64,000 bases of DNA, taken from positions 120,070 to 184,069 of the forward strand of contig JALVQA010000004.1 in NCBI GenBank assembly GCA_027031495.1. The letters run 5' to 3'. Made by a program: the position numbers and the translations under genes. Positions within the stretch are counted from its first letter, which is position 1. The number at the start of each line of letters is the position of its first letter. Shown here in pieces: positions 4,268 to 62,299 of this stretch. The notes under the pieces were generated by a model. It saw nothing but the letters and a program-made list of their open reading frames with translations. It did no database searches and was not told the origin of the DNA. The stretch comes from Candidatus Moraniibacteriota bacterium (GTDB lineage Bacteria; Patescibacteriota; Minisyncoccia; Moranbacterales; GCA-2747515).

Positions 4268-6931
4268 ATGACTGAACGCAAAATACTTCTTCTTGTTGAT
4301 ACGAGTGCGCTTATTCACCGTGCGTACCATGCAATTCCTCCACTGACAACAAAGGATGGAAAGCTTGTTAATGCTGTTTACGGTGTTGTATCTACATTAC
4401 TTTCTGTAGAAAAGGAATATACGCCAACGTACATTATTGCGGCGTACGATGTCGGCAAAAAGACCTTTCGTCACAAAATGTATGCAAAGTATAAAGCACA
4501 TCGGCGTGCACTGCCCGATGATCTTGTGGCGCAGTTTGATTATGTGCGCAAGCTTATAGATGCCTTTGGCATTCTTGGGCTGGAGCATGAAGATTTTGAG
4601 GCGGATGATATTATCGGTACGGTAGCACGTGAGATTGTGCAGAAATATGACGATATCGATGTTGTAATTGTGACCGGTGATAATGACGCGCTACAACTTG
4701 TCAATGAACGTGTGCGTGTGCGCACGTTTGGTCGCGGTCTATCGGATGCAAAAGTTTATGATATAGATGCAGTGCAGCAAAAGTACCATCTCTTGCCATC
4801 GCAGCTGCCGGAATATAAAGGACTTGTTGGTGATAGCAGTGATAATATTCCCGGTGTTAGCGGTATTGGACATAAAACTGCCATAAAACTTTTAACAATG
4901 TATGGCTCGCTAGAAGGTATTTACGAGCATATTGATGAAATTAAAGGTGCGGTGCGAGAGAGGCTGGAGCGTGATCGTGAACAAGCATTTCTTTCGCGTG
5001 ATTTGGGGCGCATCGTGACAAATGTGCCGCTGACGTATGATATTGAAGATGCACGTGCACACTTAAATACCAAGAAAGTACGCGCTTTCTTTCGCAAAAT
5101 GAATTTTTTCTCATTGATCAAGCGTCTTCCGCATGACAATGATAAAAGCACTGTGACGGCGCAAGCAGACAATGCGACGTGCACTATCATTGCACCGAAA
5201 GATGTAGAGAAAACGTTAGTATCTTTTGCGCAAAAGACGTGCGTTGCTGTGCGCGTACTCCATGATACATCTGCAATAAGAGGTGTTGCGCTCTCATCAG
5301 CGTACAATGAAGCATGTTTTATCGCCTGGACACTCGAGACACGTGCGTACATAGAACGTTTCTTTGCGCATACGAAGCGGCACGCTGTCATTACAACATT
5401 TGACACAAAAACGCTCATGCATCTTCTTGCGCGTCACAATATTGTGCTATCACCGCCTTATAGTGATGTGATGTTGCAAGCGTATGTTATCGGCGCAGGG
5501 TCTGTGATTACGCTTGCACGCTGCGCGTATGAGGAGCTAGGGCGAGAGTTGCCACAGAAACAATCACAGCTATCGCTTATGTCTGATGACGATAATGCTG
5601 TTCTATATGTTCAGCAAGAGGCGACACTGATTTATGACCTTGCGTGTCATTACGAAAAAAAGATTGCGGCTATTGCGCACACACAGAAAGGGGATGCATC
5701 CATTGCGACGGTTTTGAAACACATGGAGATCCCACTTATTGCCGTTTTGATGCGCATGGAGCGCATTGGTGTTCCCTGTGAGAAAGAAATTCTGGAAGCA
5801 TTGAGTGTAGAACTAGGAAAGAAGATTGCTGCATGTGAAGAGAAAATTTATAAGCACGCTGGCACGTCATTTAATATCAATTCGCCACAACAATTGGCAA
5901 CAATTCTTTTTGATACTCTCTCATTGCCGACACAATCCATCAAAAAGACGAAAACTGGATATTCAACGGCGGCGAGTGAACTTGAGAAATTGCGCACAAC
6001 ACATCCAATCATTGCGTTAATTGAAGAGTATCGTGAGCTCACAAAACTGCGCAATACGTACGTTGATGTCCTTCCGAAACTTATTGATGAGAAAGGTCGC
6101 ATACACACTACTTTTCAGCAGGCGGTTACAGCAACAGGGCGTCTCTCGTCAACGGATCCAAATTTGCAAAATATTCCGACACGTACGGAATACAGTAGCA
6201 CTATTCGTAGAGCATTTGCTGCACCGGATGGATTTGTTCTTGTTTCCGCTGATTACTCGCAAATTGACTTGCGGTGTATTGCGCACATTTCCGGTGATGA
6301 AAAAATGATTGCAGCGTTTCAGCGCGGTGATGATATTCACGAATTAACAGCCGCAGAAGTATTTGGTGTGCCAAAGGAGAAAGTAACAAAACAACAGCGC
6401 CGTCATGCAAAGGCCTTGAATTTTGGTCTTATCTACGGCATGGGTGCATACGGTTTTGCACAATCTGCCGGCATTGATATTGAACAGGCGCGCGATTTTA
6501 TTGCAAAGTATTTTGAGCGCTTTCGTGGTGTAGAGAAATATATGCAAGAAATTGTTGCGTTTGCAAAAGAGCATGGTTTTGTGGAGACGCCGTTTGGTCG
6601 TCGGCGTGCTATACCGGAAATTAATGCAACAAATCAGCAGCTTGCGCGCAGTGGCGAACGTATGGCAATCAACATGCCGGTGCAGGGTATGGCAGCAGAT
6701 ATTATGAAGTATGCAATGATAGCAGTTGCTAAAATGCTCAATGAAACGTACTCAGCTGATACTGCGCGCATGATTTTGCAGGTTCATGATGAGATTATTT
6801 GTGAGGTACGCAAAGAGGTTTTGCGGGATATTGAGGAGAAAATTAGCACCATAATGGAAAATATCGTGACGTTGCGTGTGCCGCTTGTCGTAGATGTTTC
6901 GCATGGTGCAACGTGGGCTAATCTTGCATAG
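4268..6931 (+). CDS. polA: DNA polymerase I (5'-3' exonuclease + polymerase domains)
   Basis: 887 aa. The N-terminal FEN/5' nuclease domain is present (LLLVDTSALIHRAYHA…GDSSDNIPGV). The polymerase motifs DYSQIDLRCIAH (motif A), KALNFGLIYGM and QVHDEIICE (motif C) are also present. Confidence 0.95.
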   Translation: MTERKILLLVDTSALIHRAYHAIPPLTTKDGKLVNAVYGVVSTLLSVEKEYTPTYIIAAYDVGKKTFRHKMYAKYKAHRRALPDDLVAQFDYVRKLIDAFGILGLEHEDFEADDIIGTVAREIVQKYDDIDVVIVTGDNDALQLVNERVRVRTFGRGLSDAKVYDIDAVQQKYHLLPSQLPEYKGLVGDSSDNIPGVSGIGHKTAIKLLTMYGSLEGIYEHIDEIKGAVRERLERDREQAFLSRDLGRIVTNVPLTYDIEDARAHLNTKKVRAFFRKMNFFSLIKRLPHDNDKSTVTAQADNATCTIIAPKDVEKTLVSFAQKTCVAVRVLHDTSAIRGVALSSAYNEACFIAWTLETRAYIERFFAHTKRHAVITTFDTKTLMHLLARHNIVLSPPYSDVMLQAYVIGAGSVITLARCAYEELGRELPQKQSQLSLMSDDDNAVLYVQQEATLIYDLACHYEKKIAAIAHTQKGDASIATVLKHMEIPLIAVLMRMERIGVPCEKEILEALSVELGKKIAACEEKIYKHAGTSFNINSPQQLATILFDTLSLPTQSIKKTKTGYSTAASELEKLRTTHPIIALIEEYRELTKLRNTYVDVLPKLIDEKGRIHTTFQQAVTATGRLSSTDPNLQNIPTRTEYSSTIRRAFAAPDGFVLVSADYSQIDLRCIAHISGDEKMIAAFQRGDDIHELTAAEVFGVPKEKVTKQQRRHAKALNFGLIYGMGAYGFAQSAGIDIEQARDFIAKYFERFRGVEKYMQEIVAFAKEHGFVETPFGRRRAIPEINATNQQLARSGERMAINMPVQGMAADIMKYAMIAVAKMLNETYSADTARMILQVHDEIICEVRKEVLRDIEEKISTIMENIVTLRVPLVVDVSHGATWANLA

Positions 6932-9268: not shown

Positions 9269-9295
9269 AAACAATCTTTGTTAAAGATATAAAAA

Positions 9296-9319
9296 ACACA
9301 TATCGTAATGGATATGTGT
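9296..9319. terminator. Bidirectional terminator hairpin acacatatc-gtaatg-gatatgtgt, flanked by A-run and T-run
   Basis: Perfect 9-bp stem read from the sequence. It lies between convergent holA (+, ends 9268) and rpsT (-, ends 9338). Confidence 0.55.
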
Positions 9320-9337
9320 TTTTTTAAGAAATTTGTA

Positions 9338-9613
9338 CTACTTTTGTCCTTGTACAAGTGCCTTAACGGCTGCATTAAGGCGGCTCTTGAGGCGCGCGGC
9401 CGTATTTTTCTTGATAACGCCTTTTTGATGTGCTTTATCAAGTGTTTTCTGCGCTGTTTTCATCCACTTTTGTGCTTCATCGACGTCACTGTGAGCAATG
9501 GCTGCTCGCGTTTTTTTAATTGCGCCACGGAAGAGACCTTTAACAATGTTGTTACGCGCGGTTTTTCGTGCCGTAACACGCATGTACTTCTTTGCTGATG
9601 CTTTAATTGGCAT
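9338..9613 (-). CDS. rpsT: 30S ribosomal protein S20
   Basis: 91-aa basic helical protein (MPIKASAKKYMRVTARKTARN…) typical of S20. Confidence 0.9.
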   Translation of the reverse strand: MPIKASAKKYMRVTARKTARNNIVKGLFRGAIKKTRAAIAHSDVDEAQKWMKTAQKTLDKAHQKGVIKKNTAARLKSRLNAAVKALVQGQK

Positions 9614-9786
9614 AGAATATTCTGACGTTATGTATTATTGAATTGAGAGCAAATAGAGTAGTGTCTGTAAGCTTCCTCACTGACACTGTGGCTAGTACCA
9701 CTTATTTTTAGCATTATTTTACGATTTTGGCAAGTGTTTTGGCACGGTAGTATGCTATTATACTTTACGTGGTACTATAGTAGTGT

Positions 9787-10383
9787 ATGATTGCACATCT
9801 TACAGGAAAAATTATTGCACGTGATGAGGACAGCATTGTTGTTGATGTTGCCGGTGTTGGGTATGGCGTGCATATAAGTGCACATACACATGAGAAGGTC
9901 GCAACGGTGAATGATATATCGCTCTTTGTTTATACACATGTGCGCGAACAGGAGATTACTCTCTATGGCTTTATGGCACAAGAAGAAAAAGAGCTTTTTG
10001 TGGCACTTCTTACAATTAGCGGCGTTGGTCCAAAGGCTGCAATGAATATCCTCTCTATCGCACCGCCACAGACAATTCTTACTGCGATTGCACACAGTGA
10101 TGCGTCGCTTCTTACGAAAGTTTCCGGTATTGGTAAAAAAACGGCAGAGCGGATCGTGTTGGAACTGCACAACAAGGTGCAGAAACTTAGAGAAAATATG
10201 CCGCAAGATAGTGATACGCACAGCACAGATGATATTGATGCTATAGATGCACTCGTTGGGCTTGGCTACAGTGTAGCGGAAGCGCGTGATGCACTCAGAG
10301 CTGTGTCATCTGACCTGCCGCCGACAGCGACAATGACCGATCGCATCCGTGCTGCGCTTAAATACGCCGGACAAAAGAAATGA
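9787..10383 (+). CDS. ruvA: Holliday junction DNA helicase RuvA
   Basis: MIAHLTGKI…VVDVAGVGYGVHIS…LLTISGVGPKAAMNILS…VSGIGKKTAERIVLEL. The OB domain and the two HhH motifs are present. Confidence 0.9.
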   Translation: MIAHLTGKIIARDEDSIVVDVAGVGYGVHISAHTHEKVATVNDISLFVYTHVREQEITLYGFMAQEEKELFVALLTISGVGPKAAMNILSIAPPQTILTAIAHSDASLLTKVSGIGKKTAERIVLELHNKVQKLRENMPQDSDTHSTDDIDAIDALVGLGYSVAEARDALRAVSSDLPPTATMTDRIRAALKYAGQKK

Positions 10384-17222: not shown

Positions 17223-18320
17223 ATGATTAAAGGTGGTGATATAAACCTTGCTTCTGGTACGATTTATGTCAGAGGTTTGCATTCGTCGATACGGAGACGC
17301 ACGCTTTTCGTGCGTGAGTCTGTTCTTGGTATCGTGCTTTTTGTTGCGCTTTTTTTCCTTTTCCTTTTTCTTTTCAATCTTGACTATGCGATGTTGGCAC
17401 GTCGTATACAAGCATTCATGGATCCTGATGGTTTTACGCGGACAGAGCGTATTCCAAGTACATGGTTACAGCGCTACAATATCGTTATTACGTCTCCTGA
17501 GGATTTTGAATTAGACCAAGATCACGATGGTTTAACGCTTTATCAAGAATATATTTACCTTACTGATCCGATTGTAGCAGATACAGATGGTGATGGTGTG
17601 TCAGATGGTGAGGAAGTTGCAAAGGGGCAGAATCCACGCGGTCTCGGTATACTGGATATGGATCATGATAGTCTACCAGATACATGGGAGCGCACTTATG
17701 GTCTCAGTACGTTGCGTAATGATCGAGACGAAGATATAGATAATGATGGTTTGTCAAATTGGCGTGAGTTTCTTCATAAAACAGATCCAAAAAATCCCGA
17801 TACGGATAATGATACATTTATGGACGGCACGGAAGTGCGCAATGGCTATGATCCGGACGCGCCTGGTGACGCGCGTCCGGCTGTAACAATCATCATCGAT
17901 AAGATTAATGTGAAGGTACCGATGGTATGGTCAACATCGGTTCTTGAGGAACAACTACAAAATGATTTGAAGAGAGGGGCAATTCACTATCCACGTACTG
18001 CTGCGCCAGGTCAAAATGGTAACATGTTTGTTGCGGCGCATTCCAGTAATTACGCATGGGCTGAAGGTAATTTTAATCGCGTTTTTGCGCGCTTAAATGA
18101 GCTTGTAGTAGGTGATGTTATTACGGTGAAAGTAACACAGGCGAACGGTGCTGTACTTGAGTATCTCTATAGGGTTACGCAGAAACGTGTTGTACAACCC
18201 GATGACCCATGGATCTTTCTTAAGACTGATAAACCAACAGCAACATTCTCAACATGTTGGCCAATCGGCACGCGGCAAAAGCGTCTTATTATAAAAGCTG
18301 ATCTTGTGCAATCGCACTAA
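17223..18320 (+). CDS. Sortase-family transpeptidase with N-terminal thrombospondin-type-3-like Ca-binding repeats
   Basis: N-terminal TM. Acidic repeats DTDGDGVSDGEE, DIDNDGLSNWRE and DTDNDTFMDGTE are present. The C-terminal sortase fold has a catalytic His (VAAHSSNY) and the TLxTC-like active site ATFSTCWP. Confidence 0.65.
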   Translation: MIKGGDINLASGTIYVRGLHSSIRRRTLFVRESVLGIVLFVALFFLFLFLFNLDYAMLARRIQAFMDPDGFTRTERIPSTWLQRYNIVITSPEDFELDQDHDGLTLYQEYIYLTDPIVADTDGDGVSDGEEVAKGQNPRGLGILDMDHDSLPDTWERTYGLSTLRNDRDEDIDNDGLSNWREFLHKTDPKNPDTDNDTFMDGTEVRNGYDPDAPGDARPAVTIIIDKINVKVPMVWSTSVLEEQLQNDLKRGAIHYPRTAAPGQNGNMFVAAHSSNYAWAEGNFNRVFARLNELVVGDVITVKVTQANGAVLEYLYRVTQKRVVQPDDPWIFLKTDKPTATFSTCWPIGTRQKRLIIKADLVQSH

Positions 18321-18381
18321 CTCTCATTTTCTCGTTTTGTGCTACATAGTGTATAATGACATATTGTGTGGTTTGCAATTT

Positions 18382-19326
18382 ATGAATCCTCTTGTACGTA
18401 CAATTCTTGCTACGATATCCTATTATGACGCAATGGATTATCCTTTAACGCTTTTTGAGATATGGCGTTTTTTGAGTTTTGAGGATATTAATGTGCCGGC
18501 ACAATACCGCAAAGAGCGAACGCTAAAGGATGTGCAGGATATTGTTGATCATCTTGTGCGCGATAAACACATTGTGTGTACGAACGGTTTTTATGCTCTG
18601 ATTGGACGAGAGCATCTTGTTCGTGAGCGTCAGCGAAGAACGATATTGTCGATTGATAAGTTGTATAGAATGCGCCGCTGTGTAAAATTCTTGCGCCATG
18701 TGCCATTTGTGCGCATGGTACTCGTGACGGGACGTCTTGCGATGAAGCACGCCGAAGAGAACAGTGACTGGGATGTTCTCATTGTTTTAAAGAGGGGATT
18801 TATTTGGACGGGACGTTTTTTTGTTACAGTGGTGACACATGTTCTCGGGCGTCGGCGGACTGACGCTCATCACGCGGATCGACTTTGTCTTAATTATTTT
18901 ATCACGACCGGTTCATTGAAAATTTCACTTGATGATCGTTACAGTGCACATGAATACATGATGGCACGACCACTTTTTGCTAGCATAAATCCACAAAGAT
19001 TTCTTTCTGCAAATCTATGGATTAAGCGTTTTCGTCCGCATTTTGATACGTTATTTGTGCAATCCCCGTATTTTATTGATGATACTGCGACGGCATATAT
19101 AATGCGACACTTTTGTGAATGGTGTTTGCGTGTAATTCATATTGAACCACTTCTTCAAAAAATACAGTATGTGAAGATTATGAAAAATCCAAAAACTTCT
19201 CGTGAAAATAGTGTAATTGTTGCTAATGATAGGGAGCTTATTTTCCTACCCTGTCCTCATAGCAAGCGCGTGTTAGCCGCTTATCATAAGCGATGTCGCT
19301 CTCTTGGTCTGCGCAGTTGTGCATAG
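18382..19326 (+). CDS. Hypothetical protein, possible nucleotidyltransferase fold
   Basis: GRLAMKHAEENSDWDVLIVL resembles the G[SG]…D.D motif of Pol-beta-type nucleotidyltransferases. The start is set at ATG 18382 (MNPLVRT…). Confidence 0.4.
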   Translation: MNPLVRTILATISYYDAMDYPLTLFEIWRFLSFEDINVPAQYRKERTLKDVQDIVDHLVRDKHIVCTNGFYALIGREHLVRERQRRTILSIDKLYRMRRCVKFLRHVPFVRMVLVTGRLAMKHAEENSDWDVLIVLKRGFIWTGRFFVTVVTHVLGRRRTDAHHADRLCLNYFITTGSLKISLDDRYSAHEYMMARPLFASINPQRFLSANLWIKRFRPHFDTLFVQSPYFIDDTATAYIMRHFCEWCLRVIHIEPLLQKIQYVKIMKNPKTSRENSVIVANDRELIFLPCPHSKRVLAAYHKRCRSLGLRSCA

Positions 19327-19598
19327 TTTCCGCATAGTGTTTATATGGCACGCTATACAGTATAATTTTTCTGTGACCAAATTATTTCCATATAGTAGCG
19401 CTTATGAAATATGTCACCAAAAGTGTATGCTTTGAATGCGCTCTGCTTTCAGTGTATTCTTACTAAGTATCAAAAATATTGTGCAGTATGTGTGCAATCT
19501 TATGCACGTGACTAAAATGAATGCATTTTATAGTAATGTTATCTTTTGAATGATGTAGTAATAATTGAGTAACAATGTTTATGAGTTGTGACAGGGTA

Positions 19599-19627
19599 TT
19601 GACAAGGCGGTTTTTGCATGCTAGAAT
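19599..19627 (+). promoter_or_regulatory. Near-consensus sigma-70 promoter (TTGACA-17 nt-TAGAAT)
   Basis: -35 TTGACA at 19599-19604, a 17-nt spacer, and -10 TAGAAT at 19622-19627. Confidence 0.5.
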
Positions 19628-19633
19628 AGTGGT

Positions 19634-19707
19634 GTGAATAAAGGAATCGGGTGATTCCGCAAACTGCCAATGTGGCCACTGGCAGGTGCGGGGCGCCCGG
19701 TTTTTTT
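19634..19707 (+). ncRNA. Candidate ~75-nt structured RNA or cis-regulatory leader (three hairpins + U7) upstream of a Cys-rich small ORF
   Basis: Hairpins ggaatc-gggt-gattcc (19643-58) and ctgcca…tggcag (19664-85), then a GC-rich hairpin gcggggcgcccgg followed by TTTTTTT (19701-07). It lies immediately downstream of the promoter above. Confidence 0.3.
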
Positions 19708-19764
19708 ATTCGCTAGAATTGTTGAATAAAACGATTCTACGTAATACGTTAATAAAATAAAAAT

Positions 19765-19962
19765 ATGAAAAAGAAGGCAGATACATGTGGAAGTTGTGGA
19801 TGTGGCGGTGCCACAGATGAGTCAACAGAGGAGAAATGCACACAAACGTGCGGATCATGCGATGTTGAGTTTAAAGTGAGCGAGGATGCACGCTTTGCAA
19901 CATTGCTCATGCTTGTCCCAATGTTGACGCTTAGTGCGTTTAGTATGATGGGACTCCTGTAA
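19765..19962 (+). CDS. Small Cys-rich membrane-anchored protein (putative metal-binding)
   Basis: 65 aa: MKKKADTCGSCGCGG…CTQTCGSC with a C-terminal hydrophobic helix (FATLLMLVPMLTLSAF). No SD sequence, so it is uncertain. Confidence 0.35.
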   Translation: MKKKADTCGSCGCGGATDESTEEKCTQTCGSCDVEFKVSEDARFATLLMLVPMLTLSAFSMMGLL

Positions 19963-20147
19963 AATAGTCTTTGAGGAGAATGTTCAAAAAGGAGGGAGTA
20001 GTGTGCACGTTTTGTGAGAGGAGAGAAGGACATAGCTGTACAGCAAAAAAAAATAGTTCCTTACGTGGCAACCCTGTGTTGCCGTAAAACAAAAAAAGAC
20101 AATTAAATATAGATAGACATTTGCTATAATTATAGCTACCAAATAAA

Positions 20148-20172
20148 ACCCACTCTTAGCGAGAGCGGGTTT
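20148..20172. terminator. Terminator hairpin (cccactct…agagcggg) downstream of efp
   Basis: On the minus strand this gives aaaacccgctctcgctaagagtgggtttt, a stem-loop flanked by T-run and A-run just after the efp stop. Confidence 0.4.
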
Positions 20173-20199
20173 TTACTATTGCGCAAAAAATGCGTCCTT

Positions 20200-20763
20200 T
20201 TATTCTTTACCAGCGTAAGTACCTTTATCAGTGTTGACAATAATGCGATCGCCAACGGAAATAAAAAGAGGTGTCGTGATTTTTGCGCCGGTACGTACAG
20301 TAACGACTTTGTCGCCGCCGGCGCTTGTATTACCCTTGATTGATGGCGGCGCTTCAATAACTTCCAGTGCTACCTTCACGGGAAGGCGGAGATCAATAGG
20401 TTGGCCATTAAATACCATAAGAGTCACTTCAAGACCTTCTGTGAGAAATTTTGCTGCGTCGGCAACAATATCCGCATCAAGTGTGAACTGTTCGTAGGAA
20501 TTCATATCCATAAAGGTGTATGTATCACCGTCTTTATAAAGATATTGTGCTTTTTGCGTATCAATATGTGCCTCTTTAACTTTGTCAGCACCTTGAAATG
20601 TTTTATCAAAGACAGCACCTGTGATGAGGTTTTTCAATTTTGTGCGCATAACAGCACCCATGCGTCCGATCTTTGAGTGCTCGTTGGACATAACCTTGTG
20701 TGGCTCATTATCAATGATAATAATCTTACCGGCTTTGATATCACTTAGTGAAAGCATAGGCAT
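20200..20763 (-). CDS. efp: Elongation factor P
   Basis: 187 aa: MLSLSDIKAGKIII…GNTSAGGDKVVTVRTGAKITTPLFI. This is a classical EF-P with three OB-like domains. Confidence 0.95.
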   Translation of the reverse strand: MPMLSLSDIKAGKIIIIDNEPHKVMSNEHSKIGRMGAVMRTKLKNLITGAVFDKTFQGADKVKEAHIDTQKAQYLYKDGDTYTFMDMNSYEQFTLDADIVADAAKFLTEGLEVTLMVFNGQPIDLRLPVKVALEVIEAPPSIKGNTSAGGDKVVTVRTGAKITTPLFISVGDRIIVNTDKGTYAGKE

Positions 20764-23823: not shown

Positions 23824-23890
23824 ATTATTTTATGGACGCTTTTTGTGAAACATGGTACTATGGAAGGGGATTTTTTATCTATATAGAGAA

Positions 23891-24847
23891 ATGAAAAAGT
23901 ATCGCACATTGCTGTTAATGAGTACTCTTGTTGTTGTTGGCGGTTTTTCCTTTGTTTTTGCTGCACAGGAGCACCGCACGTCGACTTTGTCGCTAGCGGC
24001 TGATCGTGATCAAGATGGGTTAAGTAATGAAGAGGAAGCACTCTATGGTACAGATCCTGACCGTCGTGATACGGATAATGATGGGTATTCCGATGGTGTT
24101 GAGGTGCGTAGCGGTTATGATCCACTTGTGCCAGCGTCTGAAGGAGATCGTCTCATCGGTATTGATGGCAATGTCGCACAATCTATTAGTGGAGAGGATA
24201 TTGCGCAAGCACGCCATCTAACAAATGAATTGCGTACGCGTGTTGCCGGTATTGCTTTTGATGTAATGAGTGGAAAACAAGTATCGTTAGATGATATAGA
24301 TAAGGAGATGAATGATCTGCTTGAAGGTATTGACACATTTGACATGCCACCGCTAACAGTTGATGATATTCGCATCAAAAAACAGGATTATGGTGATTTG
24401 AGTGAGAATGATCGGAAGGAGCGTGTACGTAAAGATGTGCTTGATTATATAACGGCACTCTCTTATATTATTTCACTCTATGCACCACGTCCGCTTAATA
24501 CACTTGATGAAATAGATCGCTTTGCACAAGAAGTGATAGCAGAAACGGCAAAATTGGAGGATGACTATACAAATATATCCTACTTTAAGAAGATGCTTCC
24601 GCGTGGCGAAAAGATGTTGCGAGAGTTACATAATCTTGAAGTGCCAGAGGTAATGCTGCCACTTCATATGGAAGGTCTCCGACTAGCTTATGCGGCGATA
24701 TCTGTGGGGAAATCGTTTGACAATGTCTCACAGGATGATCCCGCTGGTCTTGCTGTAGCGTTTGCGAGAGCACAAGCGGTTATAAGTCTTGCTGTTGAAT
24801 TTTCTGACAAAGTTGATGAACAGTTGAGTAAATATAATATTAATTAG
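23891..24847 (+). CDS. Secreted protein with thrombospondin-type-3-like acidic Ca-binding repeats
   Basis: Signal peptide MKKYRTLLLMSTLVVVGGFSFVFAA. Repeats DRDQDGLSNEEE and DTDNDGYSDGVE resemble the sortase N-terminus at 17223. Confidence 0.5.
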   Translation: MKKYRTLLLMSTLVVVGGFSFVFAAQEHRTSTLSLAADRDQDGLSNEEEALYGTDPDRRDTDNDGYSDGVEVRSGYDPLVPASEGDRLIGIDGNVAQSISGEDIAQARHLTNELRTRVAGIAFDVMSGKQVSLDDIDKEMNDLLEGIDTFDMPPLTVDDIRIKKQDYGDLSENDRKERVRKDVLDYITALSYIISLYAPRPLNTLDEIDRFAQEVIAETAKLEDDYTNISYFKKMLPRGEKMLRELHNLEVPEVMLPLHMEGLRLAYAAISVGKSFDNVSQDDPAGLAVAFARAQAVISLAVEFSDKVDEQLSKYNIN

Positions 24848-30928: not shown

Positions 30929-31186
30929 AGAAAAAAATGGTATGCGACGTGATATTTCTAAATAAAAAGCACCCGCACACAACGATAACGTGGCAGGATA
31001 TACTAACAACCGCCAACGTGTTATGTGCTGGAGCGCGACAAACATCATGTGGGATTAAAGCATCCCACGTCGCAATAATCGTTAATAATTACTTAAGTAC
31101 GTTGGGATTCTAACATACGATGGCATTTTTGACAAGTGTAAGTATTATAGCACTCTTTGGTGTGATTTAACGTTCATACACCATCT

Positions 31187-31214
31187 TTACAAAACAAAAA
31201 AAGCGTGCTATACT
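31187..31214 (+). promoter_or_regulatory. Sigma-70-like promoter TTTACA-16 nt-TATACT
   Basis: -35 tttaca at 31187-92 and -10 tatact at 31209-14. Confidence 0.4.
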
Positions 31215-31220
31215 GCCGGT

Positions 31221-31324
31221 AGTTAGTAAAGGTGATGTCGCCTGCTGATTCTGTCAGGGCGGTTATCACGACGAAAAGGGTGAATTGTGTTTTCCGCGCG
31301 GAGAACCGGTTCGCCCTTTTTTTT
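31221..31324 (+). ncRNA. Candidate ~100-nt structured RNA or attenuator leader ending in an intrinsic terminator (31278-31324), directly upstream of the giant surface-protein gene
   Basis: Nested helices gtgat…atcac and cgcc-tg…ca-ggcg, with an inner hairpin gttttccgcgcggagaac. The terminator stem gggtgaa/ttcgccc is followed by TTTTTTTT. Confidence 0.3.
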
Positions 31325-31349
31325 ATAAAAATCTTGTGAAAAATAAAGA

Positions 31350-34300
31350 GTGGTTCGCAAAAATATGCCAAAAAAAGCAATAAAAAACAAAAAACAAAGG
31401 AGATTATCACGAATATTGATGGAAACCATAACTGTTGTGATTGCTACTATTGTTCTTTATTTGCTTTTCCCGACATTGCGTAGTCTGATTGCACAGAATG
31501 TTGCTCTTATATCAAATCTTGGCAATAAAACCGAGGTTATTGACGTTGCAGATGAAATTGCCACGCAACGGTATGTACCTGAAATGCCAACGTCACTGGA
31601 GGTGCTATATGGAAATATATTAACTTATACAAATGAGGATGGCGCGACAACAAATATTGATTTGACGCCCTATCTTGACAATACCGATAATCAAACGCTT
31701 GCTCTTACGAAAAATGTTCTTTCAATCACAGGGGGTAACGACGTTGATCTTTCCACCATAAAGCTAAAATGGAGTCATATTACCGATATTCCTGACGACA
31801 TTGCTGATGGTGATGATGATACGACATATGCTGCAGGTGTAGGATTAACACTTATAAGTACACAATTTTCACTTAATGCCTCGCTCAATGATCTAACGGA
31901 TGTAAGTACGGCGGGTGCAGTGAGCGGTCAGGCACTCGTTTGGAACGGGGTGCAATGGGTGCCGTCATCTGTGAGCAGTGGTACTGCGGATACGCTTTAC
32001 ACGGCAGATGGCACAATAACGAGCAATAGAATCGTCACGATTGGTAGCAATAATCTTGCCTTTGCCGGTACTGGTATGATTGGCATTGGCATTATTAATC
32101 CAGCATACACACTTGATGTTAATGGCGACATTAACTTTACCGGCACTCTCTATCAAAATGGTACACCTTTTCCTATCGGTGCGACAAAAATTGACGACTT
32201 GTCTGATGGACAGTCAGACACAACCAATACCAATCTCTTTCTTGGGCATGCGGGCTTTAGTGGCACATTCTATAACAAGAGAAATACTGTTGTCGGCCTT
32301 GAGGCTTTCATAACAAAGAATGCGACAGCTTTTCCGCCGCCACTTTCATCTTATGCTGGCAATGATAATACAGCTATTGGTTATCGTGCACTGTCAAATA
32401 ATACATCCGGATTTTATAATACGGCAACTGGCTCATTGGCGCTTTACAATAACACAACGGGGTATGGTAATGTGGCATATGGTTTTAGGACGCTTTCTTC
32501 AAATACAACAGGGGCTCTTAATAATGCACATGGCGGCGATGCTCTCTATAATAATACAACCGGTAACAGAAACAGTGCATATGGCGCACGATCTCTCTAT
32601 AACAATATTGATGGCTCAAACAACGTTGCTGTAGGTTATGTTACCCTCTTTGGTAATACGCACGGCTCAGATAATACTGCGATCGGGTATAGTGCTCTTC
32701 ACAACAATATTGATGGCTCAAACAACGTTGCAGTAGGAAATAATGCTCTCTATAATAATACCAGCGGCTCAGATAATATCGCACAGGGTAATCGCGCTCT
32801 CTATAGCAATATTGATGGCATAGAGAATGTTGCACAGGGCGCCTACGCACTCTTCTCCAATACCAATGGATCATATAACGTTGCAATCGGTTTTGAAGCC
32901 CTCCGTTATAATCTTGGTGGTCAGAACAACGTGGCAGTAGGGCCAGGCGCCCTCCTAAGTAATTCGAATGGTAACTACAATGTTGCACAAGGAGCAAGCG
33001 CACTTCAGAACAATACAAGTGGCGACTACAACAATGCTTACGGTGCTTACGCGCTTTATAGTAATACAAGTGGCGACTACAACAATGCTTACGGTGCTTA
33101 CGCGCTTTATAGTAATACAAGTGGTACTAGCAATGTTGCACAAGGCGCTTATACATTGTATTCAAATGGAACTGGCAGTCGTAATGTTGCGCAGGGTGTG
33201 AATGTGTTACGCAACAACACAAGCGGTTACAACAATACGGCACAAGGTTTTCAATCTCTCTATGCCAACTTGACGGGTCATAACAATACAGCGCAGGGTA
33301 TATACGCACTTTTTTCCAATACGAGTGGTCGCTATAACACAGCTGTTGGCGCACAAGCGCTTTACGGTAACACAGCTGGTGAGGGTAATACAGCTGTTGG
33401 TGCGTTCACACTTGTTAATAATACAACGGGAAGTTATAGCACAGCACAAGGATACTATGCACTTCACGCAAATACGAGCGGTCTTTATAATACAGCATAT
33501 GGTGCATATACTCTTCGCGAAAATACAACCGGTAATTATAACGTAGCGGTCGGCATGCGAGCGTTAAATGATAATACAACCGGTTCTAACAATACAGCTG
33601 TTGGCGTTGATGCCTTGCGTGAAAACACAATCGGTATCAGCAATGTGGCAGTTGGTTTGGAGACACTCTATAAGAACACAAGTGGTAACTATAATGCCGC
33701 ACAGGGCGCTTATGCACTGCATGAGAATACAACCGGCTCCAACAATACGGCAACAGGTTTTCAGACGTTGTATAGGAATACGACTGGCGGTTCCAATACG
33801 GCACATGGTACGAATGCGCTCATATTTAATACAATAGGCTCATACAATACTGCGCAAGGTACGGATGCGTTGGCGACAAACTCAACGGGCAATAATAATA
33901 CGGCACAAGGTGCAAGTGCTCTCTTTAGCAACTCAACCGGCTCCAACAATACGGCAACAGGTTTTCAGACGTTGTATAGGAATACGACCGGAGCAAACAA
34001 TGTCGCACACGGCTTTAAAGCACTCTTTTCAAATACAACTGGTGCTGGCAATGCGGCATATGGTGCGAGCGCGCTCTATAGCAACACGACCGGTGCTGGC
34101 AATACGGCAACTGGTCTAGAAGCACTCTTTTCAAACACGACTGGTGGCTATAACGTCGCATATGGTTACCAGGCACTAACGTCAAACACAACTGGATCAG
34201 GGAATGCGGCACATGGTGCATGGGCACTCTATAGCAATAGAAGTGGTTCAAGTAATACGGCACAAGGTATTCGTGCGCTTTACAGTAATACAACAGGTGC

Positions 34301-36152
34301 TAACAACACAGCGCAAGGTGCCAATGCGCTTCGTATGAATACCTTTGGCTCTCATAATACCGCACAAGGCGCTAGCGCTCTCTATAACAATACAGCAGGC
34401 GCCAATAATACCGCACAAGGTGAGCAAGCACTTTATAACAATAAAACTGGTTCAAGTAATACAGCACAAGGAACACAGTCTCTCTATACAAATACAACCG
34501 GCTTTAATAACGTTGCACAAGGTGCACTTGCGCTCTTCTCAAATACAACTGGTTCTAGAAATACAGCACAAGGCTACAGAACGCTCTTTAGCAATACAAC
34601 AGGATTTAGAAATACGGCACAAGGTATAGAAGCGCTCTATAGTAACACAACCGGTCACAGCAATGTCGCGCAGGGCTCAGAAGCGCTTTACCACAATACA
34701 ACTGGTTCCTATAACGTTGCGCAGGGCTTGCAGGCTCTCTACAATAATACGGAAGGCAGTTACAATACAGCGCATGGTATGGGTGCCTTATATAACAATG
34801 CAGAAGGAAGTCATAATACTGCTGATGGTGCAAATGCACTTAGCAAAAACACAAAGGGTGAGTTTAACAGTGCAGTTGGAGCATCAGCACTCTATAGCAA
34901 CACAACTGGTAACTATAATGTTGCAGGTGGTTTCCAGGCACTTTACTCAAATGAAGGCGGTTCTTACAATGTTGCGCACGGCTATGCTGCACTGTACAGC
35001 AACATGTCTGGAAGCGGTAACGTTGCATATGGTACACGTGCGCTTCGTCTGAATACGAAAGGTGATGGCAATGTTGCGGTTGGTAGTGATGCGCTATATT
35101 CAAATGATAGTGGTTCTAGTAGTGTAGCTGTTGGGGATCATGCGCTCTACAGCAACACAACTGGTAACTACAATGTTGCGCAGGGCATGCAAGCACTGTA
35201 TAGCAACGTTGATGGATCGAATAATGCTGCATTTGGTACACGTGCACTTTTCTCGATCAAAAGTGGTTCTGATAACGTTGCTCTTGGCTTTAATGCTGGT
35301 CGCTTTATTGCCGATGGCGTAACGGCAAATGCGCTATCAGACCAAAGCATATTTATCGGTGCGAATGCAAAAGCAAATGCTGATAAAGAAACAAATCAAA
35401 TCGTTATTGGTTATAATGCAGTTGGTTTTGGTTCCGATACTGTTACTATTGGTAATGATAATATTAAAAAAACTATACTTAAGGGCAGTATTGGTATTGG
35501 TGTAACATCACCAACATATCGTCTTGAACTTCCAAATAATTCTGGTGTTGGTTCTGGGCGTGCACGTGCTTATCAATGGGCAACATACTCCGACAGTCGC
35601 ATCAAGAAAAACCAGGTCGCGCTGACAGAGGAGATTGACCCACTTGCAGTACTCGCACTTCTTACGCCAAAGACGTACATTCAATACGATTCTAGCTTCA
35701 CTGATGACGGTGAGCTCATCCTCAGCGGCAACGGTGACAAAACGTATGGTCTGATTGCACAGGAAGTTTACAATGCACGTCTTAATGGCAAGCGCATATT
35801 TGAGGGCGTCGTCTACAAGCCGGAAGACGAAAACAGTGATCTGTGGTCTCTTGATTACGAGAAATTTATTCCATTCACGATTGCCGCCATCCAAGAACAG
35901 CAAAAAAATATTACTGCCAATGCTCTCAAGATCGCTACACTATCCGATTTGACGCACCGCGTTGATGATCTTGCGCAGCGTATTCAAACAACGGATGCTA
36001 CAACAGATATTGACGCAGCTCTTGTTGCGGTCAACACAAAGATCACAGAACTCTTTGACACAACAACCACTCTTGACGGTCGCCTCACAACAGCGCACAA
36101 CGACATCGCACAACTGACACAACAACCCTCAATCCTGACACACTCGTTCTGA
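31350..36152 (+). CDS. Giant (1600 aa) repetitive cell-surface protein with a C-terminal phage-tail-fibre-type intramolecular chaperone (peptidase S74-like) domain
   Basis: N-terminal signal-anchor. About 70 tandem ~15-aa units of the form (S/Y)NT(S/T)G.(Y/N)N.A.G..AL. follow, predicted beta-helix. The C-terminus contains …WATYSDSRIKKNQVALTEEIDPLAVLALLTPKTYIQYD…GLIAQEVYN…LDYEKFIPFTIAAIQEQQ, the auto-cleaving chaperone-domain pattern. Confidence 0.8.
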   Translation: MVRKNMPKKAIKNKKQRRLSRILMETITVVIATIVLYLLFPTLRSLIAQNVALISNLGNKTEVIDVADEIATQRYVPEMPTSLEVLYGNILTYTNEDGATTNIDLTPYLDNTDNQTLALTKNVLSITGGNDVDLSTIKLKWSHITDIPDDIADGDDDTTYAAGVGLTLISTQFSLNASLNDLTDVSTAGAVSGQALVWNGVQWVPSSVSSGTADTLYTADGTITSNRIVTIGSNNLAFAGTGMIGIGIINPAYTLDVNGDINFTGTLYQNGTPFPIGATKIDDLSDGQSDTTNTNLFLGHAGFSGTFYNKRNTVVGLEAFITKNATAFPPPLSSYAGNDNTAIGYRALSNNTSGFYNTATGSLALYNNTTGYGNVAYGFRTLSSNTTGALNNAHGGDALYNNTTGNRNSAYGARSLYNNIDGSNNVAVGYVTLFGNTHGSDNTAIGYSALHNNIDGSNNVAVGNNALYNNTSGSDNIAQGNRALYSNIDGIENVAQGAYALFSNTNGSYNVAIGFEALRYNLGGQNNVAVGPGALLSNSNGNYNVAQGASALQNNTSGDYNNAYGAYALYSNTSGDYNNAYGAYALYSNTSGTSNVAQGAYTLYSNGTGSRNVAQGVNVLRNNTSGYNNTAQGFQSLYANLTGHNNTAQGIYALFSNTSGRYNTAVGAQALYGNTAGEGNTAVGAFTLVNNTTGSYSTAQGYYALHANTSGLYNTAYGAYTLRENTTGNYNVAVGMRALNDNTTGSNNTAVGVDALRENTIGISNVAVGLETLYKNTSGNYNAAQGAYALHENTTGSNNTATGFQTLYRNTTGGSNTAHGTNALIFNTIGSYNTAQGTDALATNSTGNNNTAQGASALFSNSTGSNNTATGFQTLYRNTTGANNVAHGFKALFSNTTGAGNAAYGASALYSNTTGAGNTATGLEALFSNTTGGYNVAYGYQALTSNTTGSGNAAHGAWALYSNRSGSSNTAQGIRALYSNTTGANNTAQGANALRMNTFGSHNTAQGASALYNNTAGANNTAQGEQALYNNKTGSSNTAQGTQSLYTNTTGFNNVAQGALALFSNTTGSRNTAQGYRTLFSNTTGFRNTAQGIEALYSNTTGHSNVAQGSEALYHNTTGSYNVAQGLQALYNNTEGSYNTAHGMGALYNNAEGSHNTADGANALSKNTKGEFNSAVGASALYSNTTGNYNVAGGFQALYSNEGGSYNVAHGYAALYSNMSGSGNVAYGTRALRLNTKGDGNVAVGSDALYSNDSGSSSVAVGDHALYSNTTGNYNVAQGMQALYSNVDGSNNAAFGTRALFSIKSGSDNVALGFNAGRFIADGVTANALSDQSIFIGANAKANADKETNQIVIGYNAVGFGSDTVTIGNDNIKKTILKGSIGIGVTSPTYRLELPNNSGVGSGRARAYQWATYSDSRIKKNQVALTEEIDPLAVLALLTPKTYIQYDSSFTDDGELILSGNGDKTYGLIAQEVYNARLNGKRIFEGVVYKPEDENSDLWSLDYEKFIPFTIAAIQEQQKNITANALKIATLSDLTHRVDDLAQRIQTTDATTDIDAALVAVNTKITELFDTTTTLDGRLTTAHNDIAQLTQQPSILTHSF
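33010..33129 (+). repeat. Perfect 60-bp tandem duplication inside the giant gene (two units)
   Basis: acaagtggcgactacaacaatgcttacggtgcttacgcgctttatagtaat occurs twice back-to-back. Other 45-55 bp internal repeats occur at 32609/32706 and 33735/33940. Confidence 0.75.
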
Positions 36153-60512: not shown

Positions 60513-61268
60513 ATGCCAAAGTTACTCAAAGATGACACTGTGCTGGAGCAGCGCAGTTTAGATGGTGGCGCGTTTACATTTCGCGCAGCACGGATTGACA
60601 AGCTCGGAGCAACCGAGTACACGCTGGTGACCATTGCTGTTGATGTTACCGGCAGTACATACGCGTTCTCCGACCAACTGCGTGATGCGCTGGTGAATGC
60701 CGTGGCAGCATGTCAGCGCTCGCCGTTTGTGGATCGCTTGCTGCTGCGTGTGGTAACGTTCTCTACGGCAGCAGGTGGTGTGCAGGAACTCCACGGCTTT
60801 GCCCCACTTGCGGATGTGGACGTTGCCGGATATCCGGTGTTTGAGCCGGATGGTCTGACGCCACTGTACGACGCGGTCTATGCATCGGTTGGCGCCATGG
60901 AACAGTATGCGGAGGATCTCTACAATGAGGATTACCTGAGCAATGGTATCGTCATTGTCATTACCGACGGTCTTGATAACGTCTCGCAGGTGACGCCGGC
61001 GATGATCAAGGAGAAGATTGGTAATATCCGACGCAAGGAGCGCATGGAGTCGCTCGTGACAATCCTGGTGGGCATCAACGCTGAAGAGTACCGTGGTGAA
61101 CTGGAGGCATTTCGGCGCAACGTGGGAATTGATTACTACGTTGATGCCGGTGCGGCCAGTGATGCGACGCTCGCGCGGCTGGCGCAATTCGTCAGTCAAA
61201 GTGTTGTGGCACAATCGCAGGCGCTTGGCAGCGGTGGACCGAGTCAGGCAATTTCCGCCACAATCTAA
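60513..61268 (+). CDS. von Willebrand factor A domain protein, TerY-like
   Basis: MIDAS residues are present: DVTGST (DxSxS-like), the Thr in GLTPLYDAV, and the DG in VITDGLDN. The size (251 aa) is typical of TerY. Confidence 0.7.
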   Translation: MPKLLKDDTVLEQRSLDGGAFTFRAARIDKLGATEYTLVTIAVDVTGSTYAFSDQLRDALVNAVAACQRSPFVDRLLLRVVTFSTAAGGVQELHGFAPLADVDVAGYPVFEPDGLTPLYDAVYASVGAMEQYAEDLYNEDYLSNGIVIVITDGLDNVSQVTPAMIKEKIGNIRRKERMESLVTILVGINAEEYRGELEAFRRNVGIDYYVDAGAASDATLARLAQFVSQSVVAQSQALGSGGPSQAISATI

Positions 61269-61441
61269 AGTGGCATAACCACGGGGTGGCAATCAATATA
61301 TTGTCACCCCTTTATTTTTTGTTGAGGACGGCGAAATGTGTTACATAAAAAACTTGCATTATGTCATAAATTATGACATAATTGCGTCGCGATAAATTTT
61401 TTATGGCATTGTTTTTTCACAACAAAAAGAGGAGGTCAATT

Positions 61442-62299
61442 ATGACATATTCCACAGATACGATAACACTTGTCGGCAGTGCACATCAACGTGCATTTAC
61501 ACCGGGACAAGATGCTGCTAGTGCCGGTGTAGTATCTGGTAAAGCTGGTGGCGCATTTGCCATCGTGTCGGATGGGTGCTCGTCCGGCGGACGTGCAGAG
61601 ATCGGTGCGCAGCTACTAACCGCTGCAGCAGAGCGAGCTGCACGTTTAAAGATTGCCGGTGATGATATGGTGCAATCATTGTTAGTATCCGTGCTTGAGG
61701 CAACAGAGAAGGCGGCATGCGATGTGGCGCTTGCGGATGATGATCTCTTCGCAACGCTTCTGTATGCAATTGTCACGCCTGATCGCGCGTTTGTACGTGT
61801 CTATGGCGATGGTGTCGTTGCGGTCGGTTTCCGTGACGGCACGTGGCAATTTCTTCGCGTTGAGTGGGAAAAGAACACGCCGTTCTATCCTATCTACTAC
61901 ACGCGAAAGAATGTGGACACGTTTCTCACTGTACACGGTAGTGCATTACACACGGCAGTCTATGTGGAACACGTCACATACGACCCTGATGGCACCGCGT
62001 GGCGGCAGTTTTGCACGCGACATACTGTTGCAGAGGGTATGATGGGGTTGATGCTGTCGCTTGACGCTGGAGCATTGCGTGACATCTGCGCACTCGGCGT
62101 CTTTACGGATGGTGTGGCGTCACTTCCCACAGTCCCGTGGGACAACATGATGCGTGAGATTGTAGCATTCAAGAGCACCACCGGTGCGTTTCTGCGCCGG
62201 CGCGTAGGTCATGTGCTGCGTGACCTCAGCATTGCGCCGACAGATGACCTGTCCGGTGCGATGGTATGGCTTTCTTCTGATGACGGAGGTGGATCATGA
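61442..62299 (+). CDS. PP2C-family Ser/Thr protein phosphatase
   Basis: FAIVSDGCSSGG (metal-binding DG), VYGDGVV and LGVFTDGV motifs. Strong RBS agaggagg precedes ATG 61442. Confidence 0.75.
   Translation: MTYSTDTITLVGSAHQRAFTPGQDAASAGVVSGKAGGAFAIVSDGCSSGGRAEIGAQLLTAAAERAARLKIAGDDMVQSLLVSVLEATEKAACDVALADDDLFATLLYAIVTPDRAFVRVYGDGVVAVGFRDGTWQFLRVEWEKNTPFYPIYYTRKNVDTFLTVHGSALHTAVYVEHVTYDPDGTAWRQFCTRHTVAEGMMGLMLSLDAGALRDICALGVFTDGVASLPTVPWDNMMREIVAFKSTTGAFLRRRVGHVLRDLSIAPTDDLSGAMVWLSSDDGGGS

Follow-up and report, generated by a model that had tools for sequence, protein, structure and literature searches.

In a 64,000-nt stretch of DNA from Candidatus Moraniibacteriota bacterium (GCA_027031495.1, contig JALVQA010000004.1, 120,070-184,069 of the forward strand), which is called the window here and whose own coordinates are used throughout, a small RNA hairpin that ends in a terminator lies between a near-consensus promoter and an open reading frame (ORF) for a cysteine-rich mini-protein. 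We conclude that this hairpin, as part of the 5' leader, probably (at a rough probability of 0.6) attenuates transcription of the mini-protein gene in cis, with readthrough controlled via a conserved CGGGUG(A) box. The features on which this conclusion turns are the following.

19599-19627, + strand: promoter, with -35 TTGACA (19599-19604), a 17-nt spacer, TG (19619-19620) and -10 TAGAAT (19622-19627)
19640-19654, + strand: 5' arm of the hairpin, AAAGGAAUCGGGUG plus the bulged A19654
19643-19658, + strand: candidate antiterminator H1, GGAAUC-GGGU-GAUUCC, which excludes the long hairpin
19647-19654, + strand: 5' box, UCGGGUGA, whose inner CGGGU is invariant in the family
19655-19693, + strand: variable hairpin interior, with the inner stem UUCCGCA/UGCGGGG and the apical stem-loop CUGCCA...UGGCAG
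19694-19707, + strand: 3' arm CGCCCGG and then the U7 tract (19701-19707), an intrinsic-terminator signal
19765-19962, + strand: mini-protein ORF, 65 aa, MKKKADTCGSCGCGGATDESTEEKCTQTCGSCDVEFKVSEDARFATLLMLVPMLTLSAFSMMGLL, which starts 57 nt past the U-tract

The promoter scores 11/12, carries the TG extension and is the best sigma-70 match of the window. A whole-window scan showed no other site where a perfect -35, a 17-nt spacer and a TG extension occur together. Transcription is predicted to start at about 19634 and to yield a transcript of about 74 nt (19634-19707) that ends in the U7 tract. The stable fold of this RNA is a single long hairpin of about 30 bp (19636-19711), on which the minimum-free-energy and centroid structures agree, with an energy of -46.7 kcal/mol for 19630-19712 and -42.7 kcal/mol for 19634-19710 (z -6.85; 0 of 200 shuffles as stable). 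A previous reading of this DNA from its letters and translations (the sequence-only reading) had described a near-consensus TTGACA-17-TAGAAT promoter, a short transcript closed by a G+C-rich stem and U7, and, about 55 nt downstream, a 65-codon cysteine-rich ORF with a hydrophobic C-terminus, all of which are borne out. The three consecutive hairpins that it proposed for the transcript have to be given up, for the same 77 nt reach only -20.5 kcal/mol in that sub-optimal arrangement versus -42.7 kcal/mol as one hairpin; H1 is the first of the three. The long hairpin is specific to the + strand because it contains six G-U pairs: the reverse complement folds at -31.2 kcal/mol versus -42.7 kcal/mol, and the covariance model scores 11.7 bits on the - strand versus 63.5 bits on the + strand. 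The 5' arm sequence has a single exact copy in the window. The stem of the hairpin is G+C-rich and the U-tract follows directly, as in an intrinsic terminator, and a tract of U4-U8 is present in all 18 instances collected.

These 18 instances of promoter plus hairpin come from 13 non-redundant loci (named L plus a number) and represent about ten independent lineages. They were gathered by synteny, by a pattern scan of metagenome contigs, and from the loci of distant mini-protein homologues. The syntenic contigs L001, L003, L004 and L005 all have promoter and hairpin 5' of the mini-ORF (4 of 4), in the gene order sortase, 314-aa protein, secreted 314-358-aa protein, mini-ORF, and convergent EF-P/S18/SSB/S6. 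An exact 26-mer scan of genome contigs gave 0 matches. The corrected pattern scan of metagenome contigs returned 37 loci, three of which are real, namely L007, L008 and L039 (the last duplicates L004); the other 34 were rejected as generic sigma-70 promoters with TCGGGTGA behind them by chance. For the distant homologues of the mini-protein (36-48% identity), the element stands directly upstream in every locus that was fetched. The following loci of the set are referred to below.

L044: complete 1.29-Mb Moraniibacteriota genome CP175956.1
L045: element after a P-type ATPase
L047: element before an ABC-F ATPase
L049: second paralogue, adjoining EF-P
L051: minimal form of the element, AAAAAGCGGGUGAUUAGCCCGUUUUU
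L052: element adjoining gyrA
L054: element after recA

Generally, the downstream gene is the mini-protein (14 of 18), while four instances, called copy A, precede the gene of a secreted protein. The mini-protein instances span at least six gene neighbourhoods, with neighbours including P-type ATPase, recA, gyrA, ABC-F ATPase and EF-P. Copy A shares the promoter and has UAAAGAAGUCGGGUGA as its 5' sequence; its product is a secreted, Thr/Asn-rich protein of 314-330 aa with the C-terminal TFTIATNA and without the Cys motif; L008 has both copies A and B. The duplication of promoter and 5' arm before an unrelated gene is typical behaviour of a regulon element. Copy A was located at these positions.

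Copy A: L001 2497-2731; L003 2379-2620; L008 2644-2918 (- strand); L004 2744-2901

Copy A and the secreted-protein gene are absent from the window, and no remnant of either was found in 19327-19598.

All instances form one hairpin, in which an A/G-rich run plus NCGGGUG pairs with CRCCCGN and the U-tract. The hairpin interior ranges from 7 to about 55 nt (14 to about 55 nt for the part that corresponds to 19655-19693) and differs in sequence and length in every relative, with pairing retained. In the outer 14-bp helix, 92% of the cells are paired in 11 sequences and 90% in 17 sequences, versus 42-62% and 43-62%, respectively, in slid controls in which the partner was shifted by 1-3 columns. Of the 17 consensus pairs, counted over both helices, 6 show double-sided changes. 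In the outer helix such changes occur at two positions (A-U 11, G-C 3, G-U 3, and U-A 8, U-G 5, C-G 2), and in the inner helix columns 31:64 have CG in 5 sequences and UA in 5. The covariation that had been suggested as a check of the structure is thus present, and the structure is conserved in relatives.

Besides the structure, the sequence of one arm is kept. In the 5' box, CGGGU (C15 G16 G17 G18 U19) is invariant in 17 sequences, the next G is present in 16 and then an A in most, while the 3' arm drifts through G-U pairs (CACCCG, CGCCCG, CACUCG, CAUCCG, UGCCCG, GACCCG, ACUCG). In 11 of 17 instances, GGGUG lies 21 nt from the -10 (range 15-23), and the promoter form TTGACA-N13-RTGCTAnnnT is kept in 16 of 18. 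The 3' terminators behind the same mini-ORFs serve as an internal control, and their stems differ entirely among lineages. Because these ordinary 3' terminators diverge while the leader box is invariant, the leader terminator is under constraint of sequence, not merely of structure.

This contrast bears on the first alternative, a constitutive structure without any switch, either a 5' stabiliser of the mRNA or a fixed leaky terminator that sets a constant low expression and also stops upstream transcription. 5'-terminal hairpins are known as mRNA stabilisers, the proposed antiterminator has no statistical support, and in the window, L045 and L054 no terminator lies between the upstream gene and the promoter, so the hairpin may end upstream transcripts. 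However, a constitutive structure leaves the invariant CGGGU(G)(A) unexplained, given that the 3' terminators behind these genes have fully diverged. A strong promoter right before a strong terminator would also be wasteful unless readthrough is controlled, and a stabiliser needs no U-tract, yet the U-tract is kept in all instances. We therefore regard this explanation as unlikely.

The next question is whether the RNA acts in cis or is a gene of its own. As an independent small RNA, a possibility also raised in the sequence-only reading, the hairpin of about 74 nt would itself be the product, working as a protein sponge or a base-pairing RNA, and the downstream gene would be merely adjacent or expressed by leak-through. 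It would suit such an RNA that it has its own near-consensus promoter and strong terminator, that it starts almost exactly at the hairpin base, that the CGGGUG(A) box could be a recognition site, and that the spacer between terminator and ORF is unconserved, varying in the relatives in sequence and in length (about 40 to about 210 nt). Against it stands the position of the element: all 18 instances share the strand of the next ORF and stand directly 5' of it (about 40-210 nt), and none is stand-alone or antisense. The covariance scan of the window found exactly one copy (63.5 bits with model R1, 51.4 bits with model R2), the next-best matches of R1 and R2 being ordinary terminators that reach no more than 22 bits. 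A stand-alone copy turned up neither in the 64-kb window nor in about 76 kb of related loci (R1/R2), nor in about 147 kb of related sequence overall. What's more, the module was duplicated together with its position before a second gene.

Promoters point the same way, for the ORF has no alternative one. Wherever the hexamer scan detected a promoter upstream of the leader (16 of 17 leaders), it scored 10-12/12; the L045 extract breaks off within the -35, and L054 was judged by eye. Between terminator and ATG, in contrast, no candidate in the 17 leaders exceeded 8-9/12, none was conserved, and six leaders had no candidate at all. In all 18 instances, the element lies between the only recognisable promoter of the gene and its start codon. 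Beyond the terminator, elements of the 5' untranslated region (UTR) are conserved in some sub-families, namely a palindrome, about 170 nt after copy A (including CUCUAAGGAGGGCGG far upstream of the ATG) and AAAAACAAAAAU-AUG, and this conservation implies that the transcript continues past the terminator. The strand and position, the lack of a second promoter and the conserved downstream UTR together favour a cis-acting leader with a readthrough-dependent gene, and an independent small RNA becomes improbable, since every instance has a same-strand gene downstream.

How the attenuator could switch is suggested by H1, which has an energy of -7.4 kcal/mol in the nascent RNA and is plausible as an antiterminator. 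A local hairpin with GGGU in its loop is possible in most instances. Copy A has the form GAAGUC-GGGU-GACUUC, with two double-sided changes versus copy B, L047 has AAAGAC-GGGUGA-GUCUUU, L054 has GAAGA-AACGGGUA-UCUUC, and the form GAUGA...UCAUC is found in L007, L044, L052 and L045. The loop that presents GGGU ranges from 4 to 16 nt. A conserved unpaired core was not found: invariance is confined to CGGGU (mostly followed by G and A), which is base-paired in the stable fold. Since there is no such core and the GGGU loop is variable, recognition of CGGGUG(A) by a macromolecule is favoured over a small-molecule aptamer. A leader peptide was also considered and rejected. The window can be read as the short ORF GUG-AAU-AAA-GGA-AUC-GGG-UGA, but its start codon is unconserved: the close relatives L001, L003, L005 and L008 lack an in-frame start, and in other lineages the mini-ORFs are unrelated or absent (by eye).

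The same observations speak against a riboswitch, in which a small molecule or metal ion, for instance a thiophilic metal, would shift the balance between H1 and the terminator. In its favour, the element is laid out like a terminator-type expression platform, the product has a CxxCxC motif, and an alternative local hairpin around GGGU is available in most instances; very small aptamers embedded in terminators do exist, such as the thiS/HMP-PP and preQ1-I classes. However, in Rfam 15 the window yields only 3 tRNAs at the gathering threshold, and at E<=10 the region 19300-20250 yields 4 hits, three of them 3' of the ORF (20007-20180) and one antisense within it, but none in the leader 19628-19764. 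At E<=1, nothing is matched on the leader in seven related loci, and over 8 sources there is no Rfam match at E<=10. The interior, 7 to about 55 nt long, conserves no unpaired nucleotide except one bulged A, which leaves no pocket, and the GGGU loop varies from 4 to 16 nt. As for the metal, its only basis was the Cys motif of the product, which the secreted protein of copy A lacks, and the family members P0005 and P0064 lack most of the cysteines. Of the two halves of the earlier proposal of a leader or attenuator or riboswitch, the leader stands (it is conserved, on the same strand and behind the only promoter), while the riboswitch, with neither an Rfam match nor an unpaired core, is left as the least probable of these alternatives.

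For the cis-acting attenuator we propose the following course. The near-consensus promoter would start the RNA at about 19634, and its first 74 nt or so would fold into one long hairpin whose base, AAAGGAAUCGGGUG/CGCCCGGUUUUUUU, would act as a canonical intrinsic terminator. By default the U-tract would end most transcripts, with a stable hairpin RNA as the result, and the mini-protein would be made solely from readthrough transcripts, because no other promoter precedes the ORF. Readthrough would be set by a recogniser of the invariant CGGGUG(A) box, which would keep the box in the local hairpin H1 or otherwise off the 3' arm. This recogniser would most likely be a protein, either an RNA-binding antiterminator or a protein of the elongation-factor type; a small ligand is the less likely trigger.

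Several points weigh against this proposal. Pairing in H1 (77% of cells) equals that of column shuffles; a helix of at least 5 bp is present in 11 of the 14 sequences tested, with per-sequence p mostly >0.05 versus shuffled flanks (a Fisher combination calculated by hand gives about 0.02, relatedness ignored), and H1 is missing in L004 A, L004 B and L051. No regulator is apparent nearby: among 25 other window proteins there is no NusG paralogue (NGN/KOW) or obvious RNA-binding protein, the genes called in related loci include no NGN/KOW match or obvious RNA-binding regulator either, and no neighbour gene is conserved across the loci. The invariance of the G-rich 5' arm could come partly from one-sided G-U tolerance together with the shallow sampling of about ten independent lineages. 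The collecting pattern required a promoter, so the survey covers promoter-bearing copies. Finally, we infer both the termination at the U-tract and the readthrough from sequence, as well as the conditionality and the nature of the trigger.

In one sub-clade, the second promoter-plus-leader copy would control the secreted 314-330-aa protein, and with this copy before a secreted-protein gene the element would define a small regulon of envelope proteins. It is possible, although we hold this only tentatively, that the attenuator is part of a Patescibacteria-specific antitermination system still to be described, in which either a minimal hairpin sensor or a trans-factor of its own, be it protein or RNA, would co-regulate a few envelope genes, such as the tail-anchored CxxCxC mini-protein, the secreted surface protein and possibly giant surface proteins (e.g. 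ORF 31350-36152, with its GGGUGA-like leader terminator). If this is true, these regulator-poor, host-dependent bacteria would offer a rare case of gene regulation. Genomes of the Patescibacteria, or Candidate Phyla Radiation (CPR), are tiny and encode few recognisable regulators, and to our knowledge almost no cis-regulatory RNA has been described in these bacteria. A leader RNA conserved over several of their lineages is a testable handle on the control of envelope proteins, its motif is short enough for direct in vitro work, and its presence marks the mini-protein as a real, tightly controlled gene.

Judged by its sequence relatives, the mini-protein ORF is a real gene and its family is Patescibacteria-specific. 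The N-terminus of the product carries the Cys cluster CGSCGCGG...CTQTCGSC, which is followed by an acidic linker and a hydrophobic C-terminus with the invariant tail FATLLMLVPMLTLSAFSMMGLL. The 65-aa product has four close relatives. A profile search gave 81 clusters at 90% identity, the few named ones belonging to Candidatus Moraniibacteriota, the Parcubacteria group or the Patescibacteria group, and an exhaustive HMMER search of 1.84 billion representatives gave 52 clusters at 50% identity, nearly all of 45-80 aa. The family signature consists of an N-terminal CxxC(xC), an acidic linker of variable length, and a tail that runs to the last residue and is near-invariant, FA(V/T)LL(A/M)LVP(A/M)(M/L)T(M/L)(T/S)LFNxMGL(L/I). 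In Pfam and NCBIfam, the best matches of the mini-protein are far under the cut-offs, with no Pfam hit at E<=1. FeoB-associated Cys-rich membrane proteins (PF12669) are likewise very small proteins with a Cys/Gly-rich cluster and one hydrophobic helix, but the mini-protein has the reversed topology, with the Cys cluster N-terminal and the helix at the extreme C-terminus. The mini-protein gene is convergent with the block of EF-P, S18, SSB and S6 in four separate lineages despite different upstream genes, and the convergence with EF-P is seen at window 19765-20763, L049, L051 and L054.

Three further features lie between and behind these genes.

19714-19739, + strand: second spacer hairpin, UAGAAUUGUU...AACGAUUCUA, without a U-tract and unconserved in sequence among relatives
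19748-19764, + strand: A-rich translation initiation region, UAAUAAAAUAAAAAU, without Shine-Dalgarno sequence
20143-20175, no strand assigned: bidirectional terminator common to the mini-ORF and the convergent EF-P gene (20200-20763, - strand)

The sequence of the terminator at 20143-20175 is unrelated to the 3' terminators at orthologous loci. The octamer GCTAGAAT of the -10 region (19620-19627) recurs at 19713-19720, 6 nt past the U-tract, as the 5' side of the second spacer hairpin and without a matching -35; at the equivalent position relatives have other -10-like hexamers. A palindrome, CAUGCAAUAUAUUGCA, occurs between the leader terminator and the mini-ORF in L007 (about 9860-9880, - strand), L044 (2905-2925) and L052 (2455-2475). 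The family-wide start context of the mini-ORF is AAAAACAAAAAU-AUG. Shine-Dalgarno-like sequences were seen at only about 6 of 53 likely window genes, and several genes have a -10-like TAnnnT 6-8 nt 5' of the ATG (e.g. 4268, 9787); such boxes close to the ATG suggest that leaderless mRNAs are frequent in the window.

The spacer 19327-19764 (438 bp), which the earlier reading took for the longest non-coding stretch, is surpassed by 9269-9786 (518 bp), where only ORFs of at most 96 aa occur. Two genes upstream of the element there is a sortase with N-terminal bacterial TSP3 repeats (17223-18320), and a further TSP3-repeat protein is nearby at 23852-24847. Between the sortase and the element lies a 340-aa gene (18304-19326), whose L001 orthologue has only a faint nucleotidyltransferase-like match.

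Some other hairpins were noted. A second promoter, TTTACA-17-TATACT with TG, lies within window 31186-31335 and is followed by a 115-nt leader with two hairpins, one at 31232-31269 and one of terminator type at 31273-31321 (AAAAGGGUGAAUUG...CGGUUCGCCC plus U8), just 5' of the 1600-aa ORF 31350-36152, which has no Pfam match. The hairpin at 31273-31321 looks GGGUGA-like by eye, but the covariance models reject it (E>10). In L007, a hairpin at 4521-4578 on the - strand (GAAACGGGUGAAAAAUGUC...GACAU..AUUUUUUGCUCG plus U6, z -5.2) lies 5' of a membrane-anchored protein of at least 394 aa and has no canonical promoter; it looks related by eye and may be a diverged extra copy, with 14.5 bits against R2 and E about 0.8, below model acceptance. 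The window hairpin at 61284-61319 (ACGGGGUGGCAAU...AUUGUCACCCC and then UUUAUUUUU) separates ORF 60513-61268 from a PP2C phosphatase gene (61382-62299); it is a weak model match (11.4 bits with R1) and probably an ordinary terminator.

Other interpretations of the element can be dismissed briefly: a type I toxin-antitoxin pair (the RNA is same-strand, upstream and non-overlapping, the minus strand scores 11.7 versus 63.5 bits, and the protein is conserved across a phylum-level group); a DNA operator for a dimeric repressor (the half-sites TCGGGTGA/TCACCCGA are 7 to about 55 nt apart, and the G-U pairs make the symmetry RNA-specific); a repeat or miniature inverted-repeat transposable element (one copy in the 64 kb); Shine-Dalgarno/anti-Shine-Dalgarno mimicry by AAAGGA...GGUGAU (Shine-Dalgarno sequences are hardly used here, and the resemblance fails across the family); and GAUGA/UGA as part of a k-turn or C/D box (a consistent partner strand is lacking).

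Among known systems, the closest in function is the LoaP-controlled dfn leader of Bacillus velezensis, which combines a small conserved RNA hairpin with an intrinsic terminator and factor-dependent readthrough (PMC12691694). The present leader is alike in its conserved hairpin and intrinsic terminator, with readthrough being only proposed here. It differs in that the conserved box is part of the terminator stem, whereas in dfn it forms a separate upstream hairpin, and in that the targets are single small genes instead of long biosynthetic operons; no NusG paralogue was found in the window proteins scanned or adjoining any locus.

RfaH and UpxY are responsible for antitermination of envelope, capsule and pilus operons, and ops acts as non-template DNA at a pause site, against Rho and not at an intrinsic terminator in a leader. 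The ops element GGCGGTAGNNTG has no match with <=2 mismatches in 19634-19764. The likeness to RfaH/ops and UpxY is looser and consists in short conserved leader elements before cell-surface genes (PMC11685472, PMC12691694), here those of the secreted protein of copy A and of the membrane mini-protein.

With riboswitches, PyrR, TRAP, BglG-RAT, ANTAR and T-box systems, the element shares the order of promoter, leader, terminator hairpin with U-tract, and gene, as well as a possible local hairpin that excludes the terminator, but it has no Rfam match and no conserved aptamer core. As the leader is only about 45-80 nt long with 3-6 unpaired 5' nucleotides, there is no room for a classical cascade of antiterminator and anti-antiterminator. 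Ordinary A-tract bidirectional terminators have a similar G+C-rich stem, U-tract and upstream A-rich run pairing with the U-tract; the element differs from them in that it lies between promoter and gene, is strand-specific via G-U pairs, and is conserved in sequence across lineages. In conclusion, membership in LoaP, RfaH/UpxY or other named systems is not supported, and the element is best filed as a new, undescribed RNA family of the 5' leader attenuator type.

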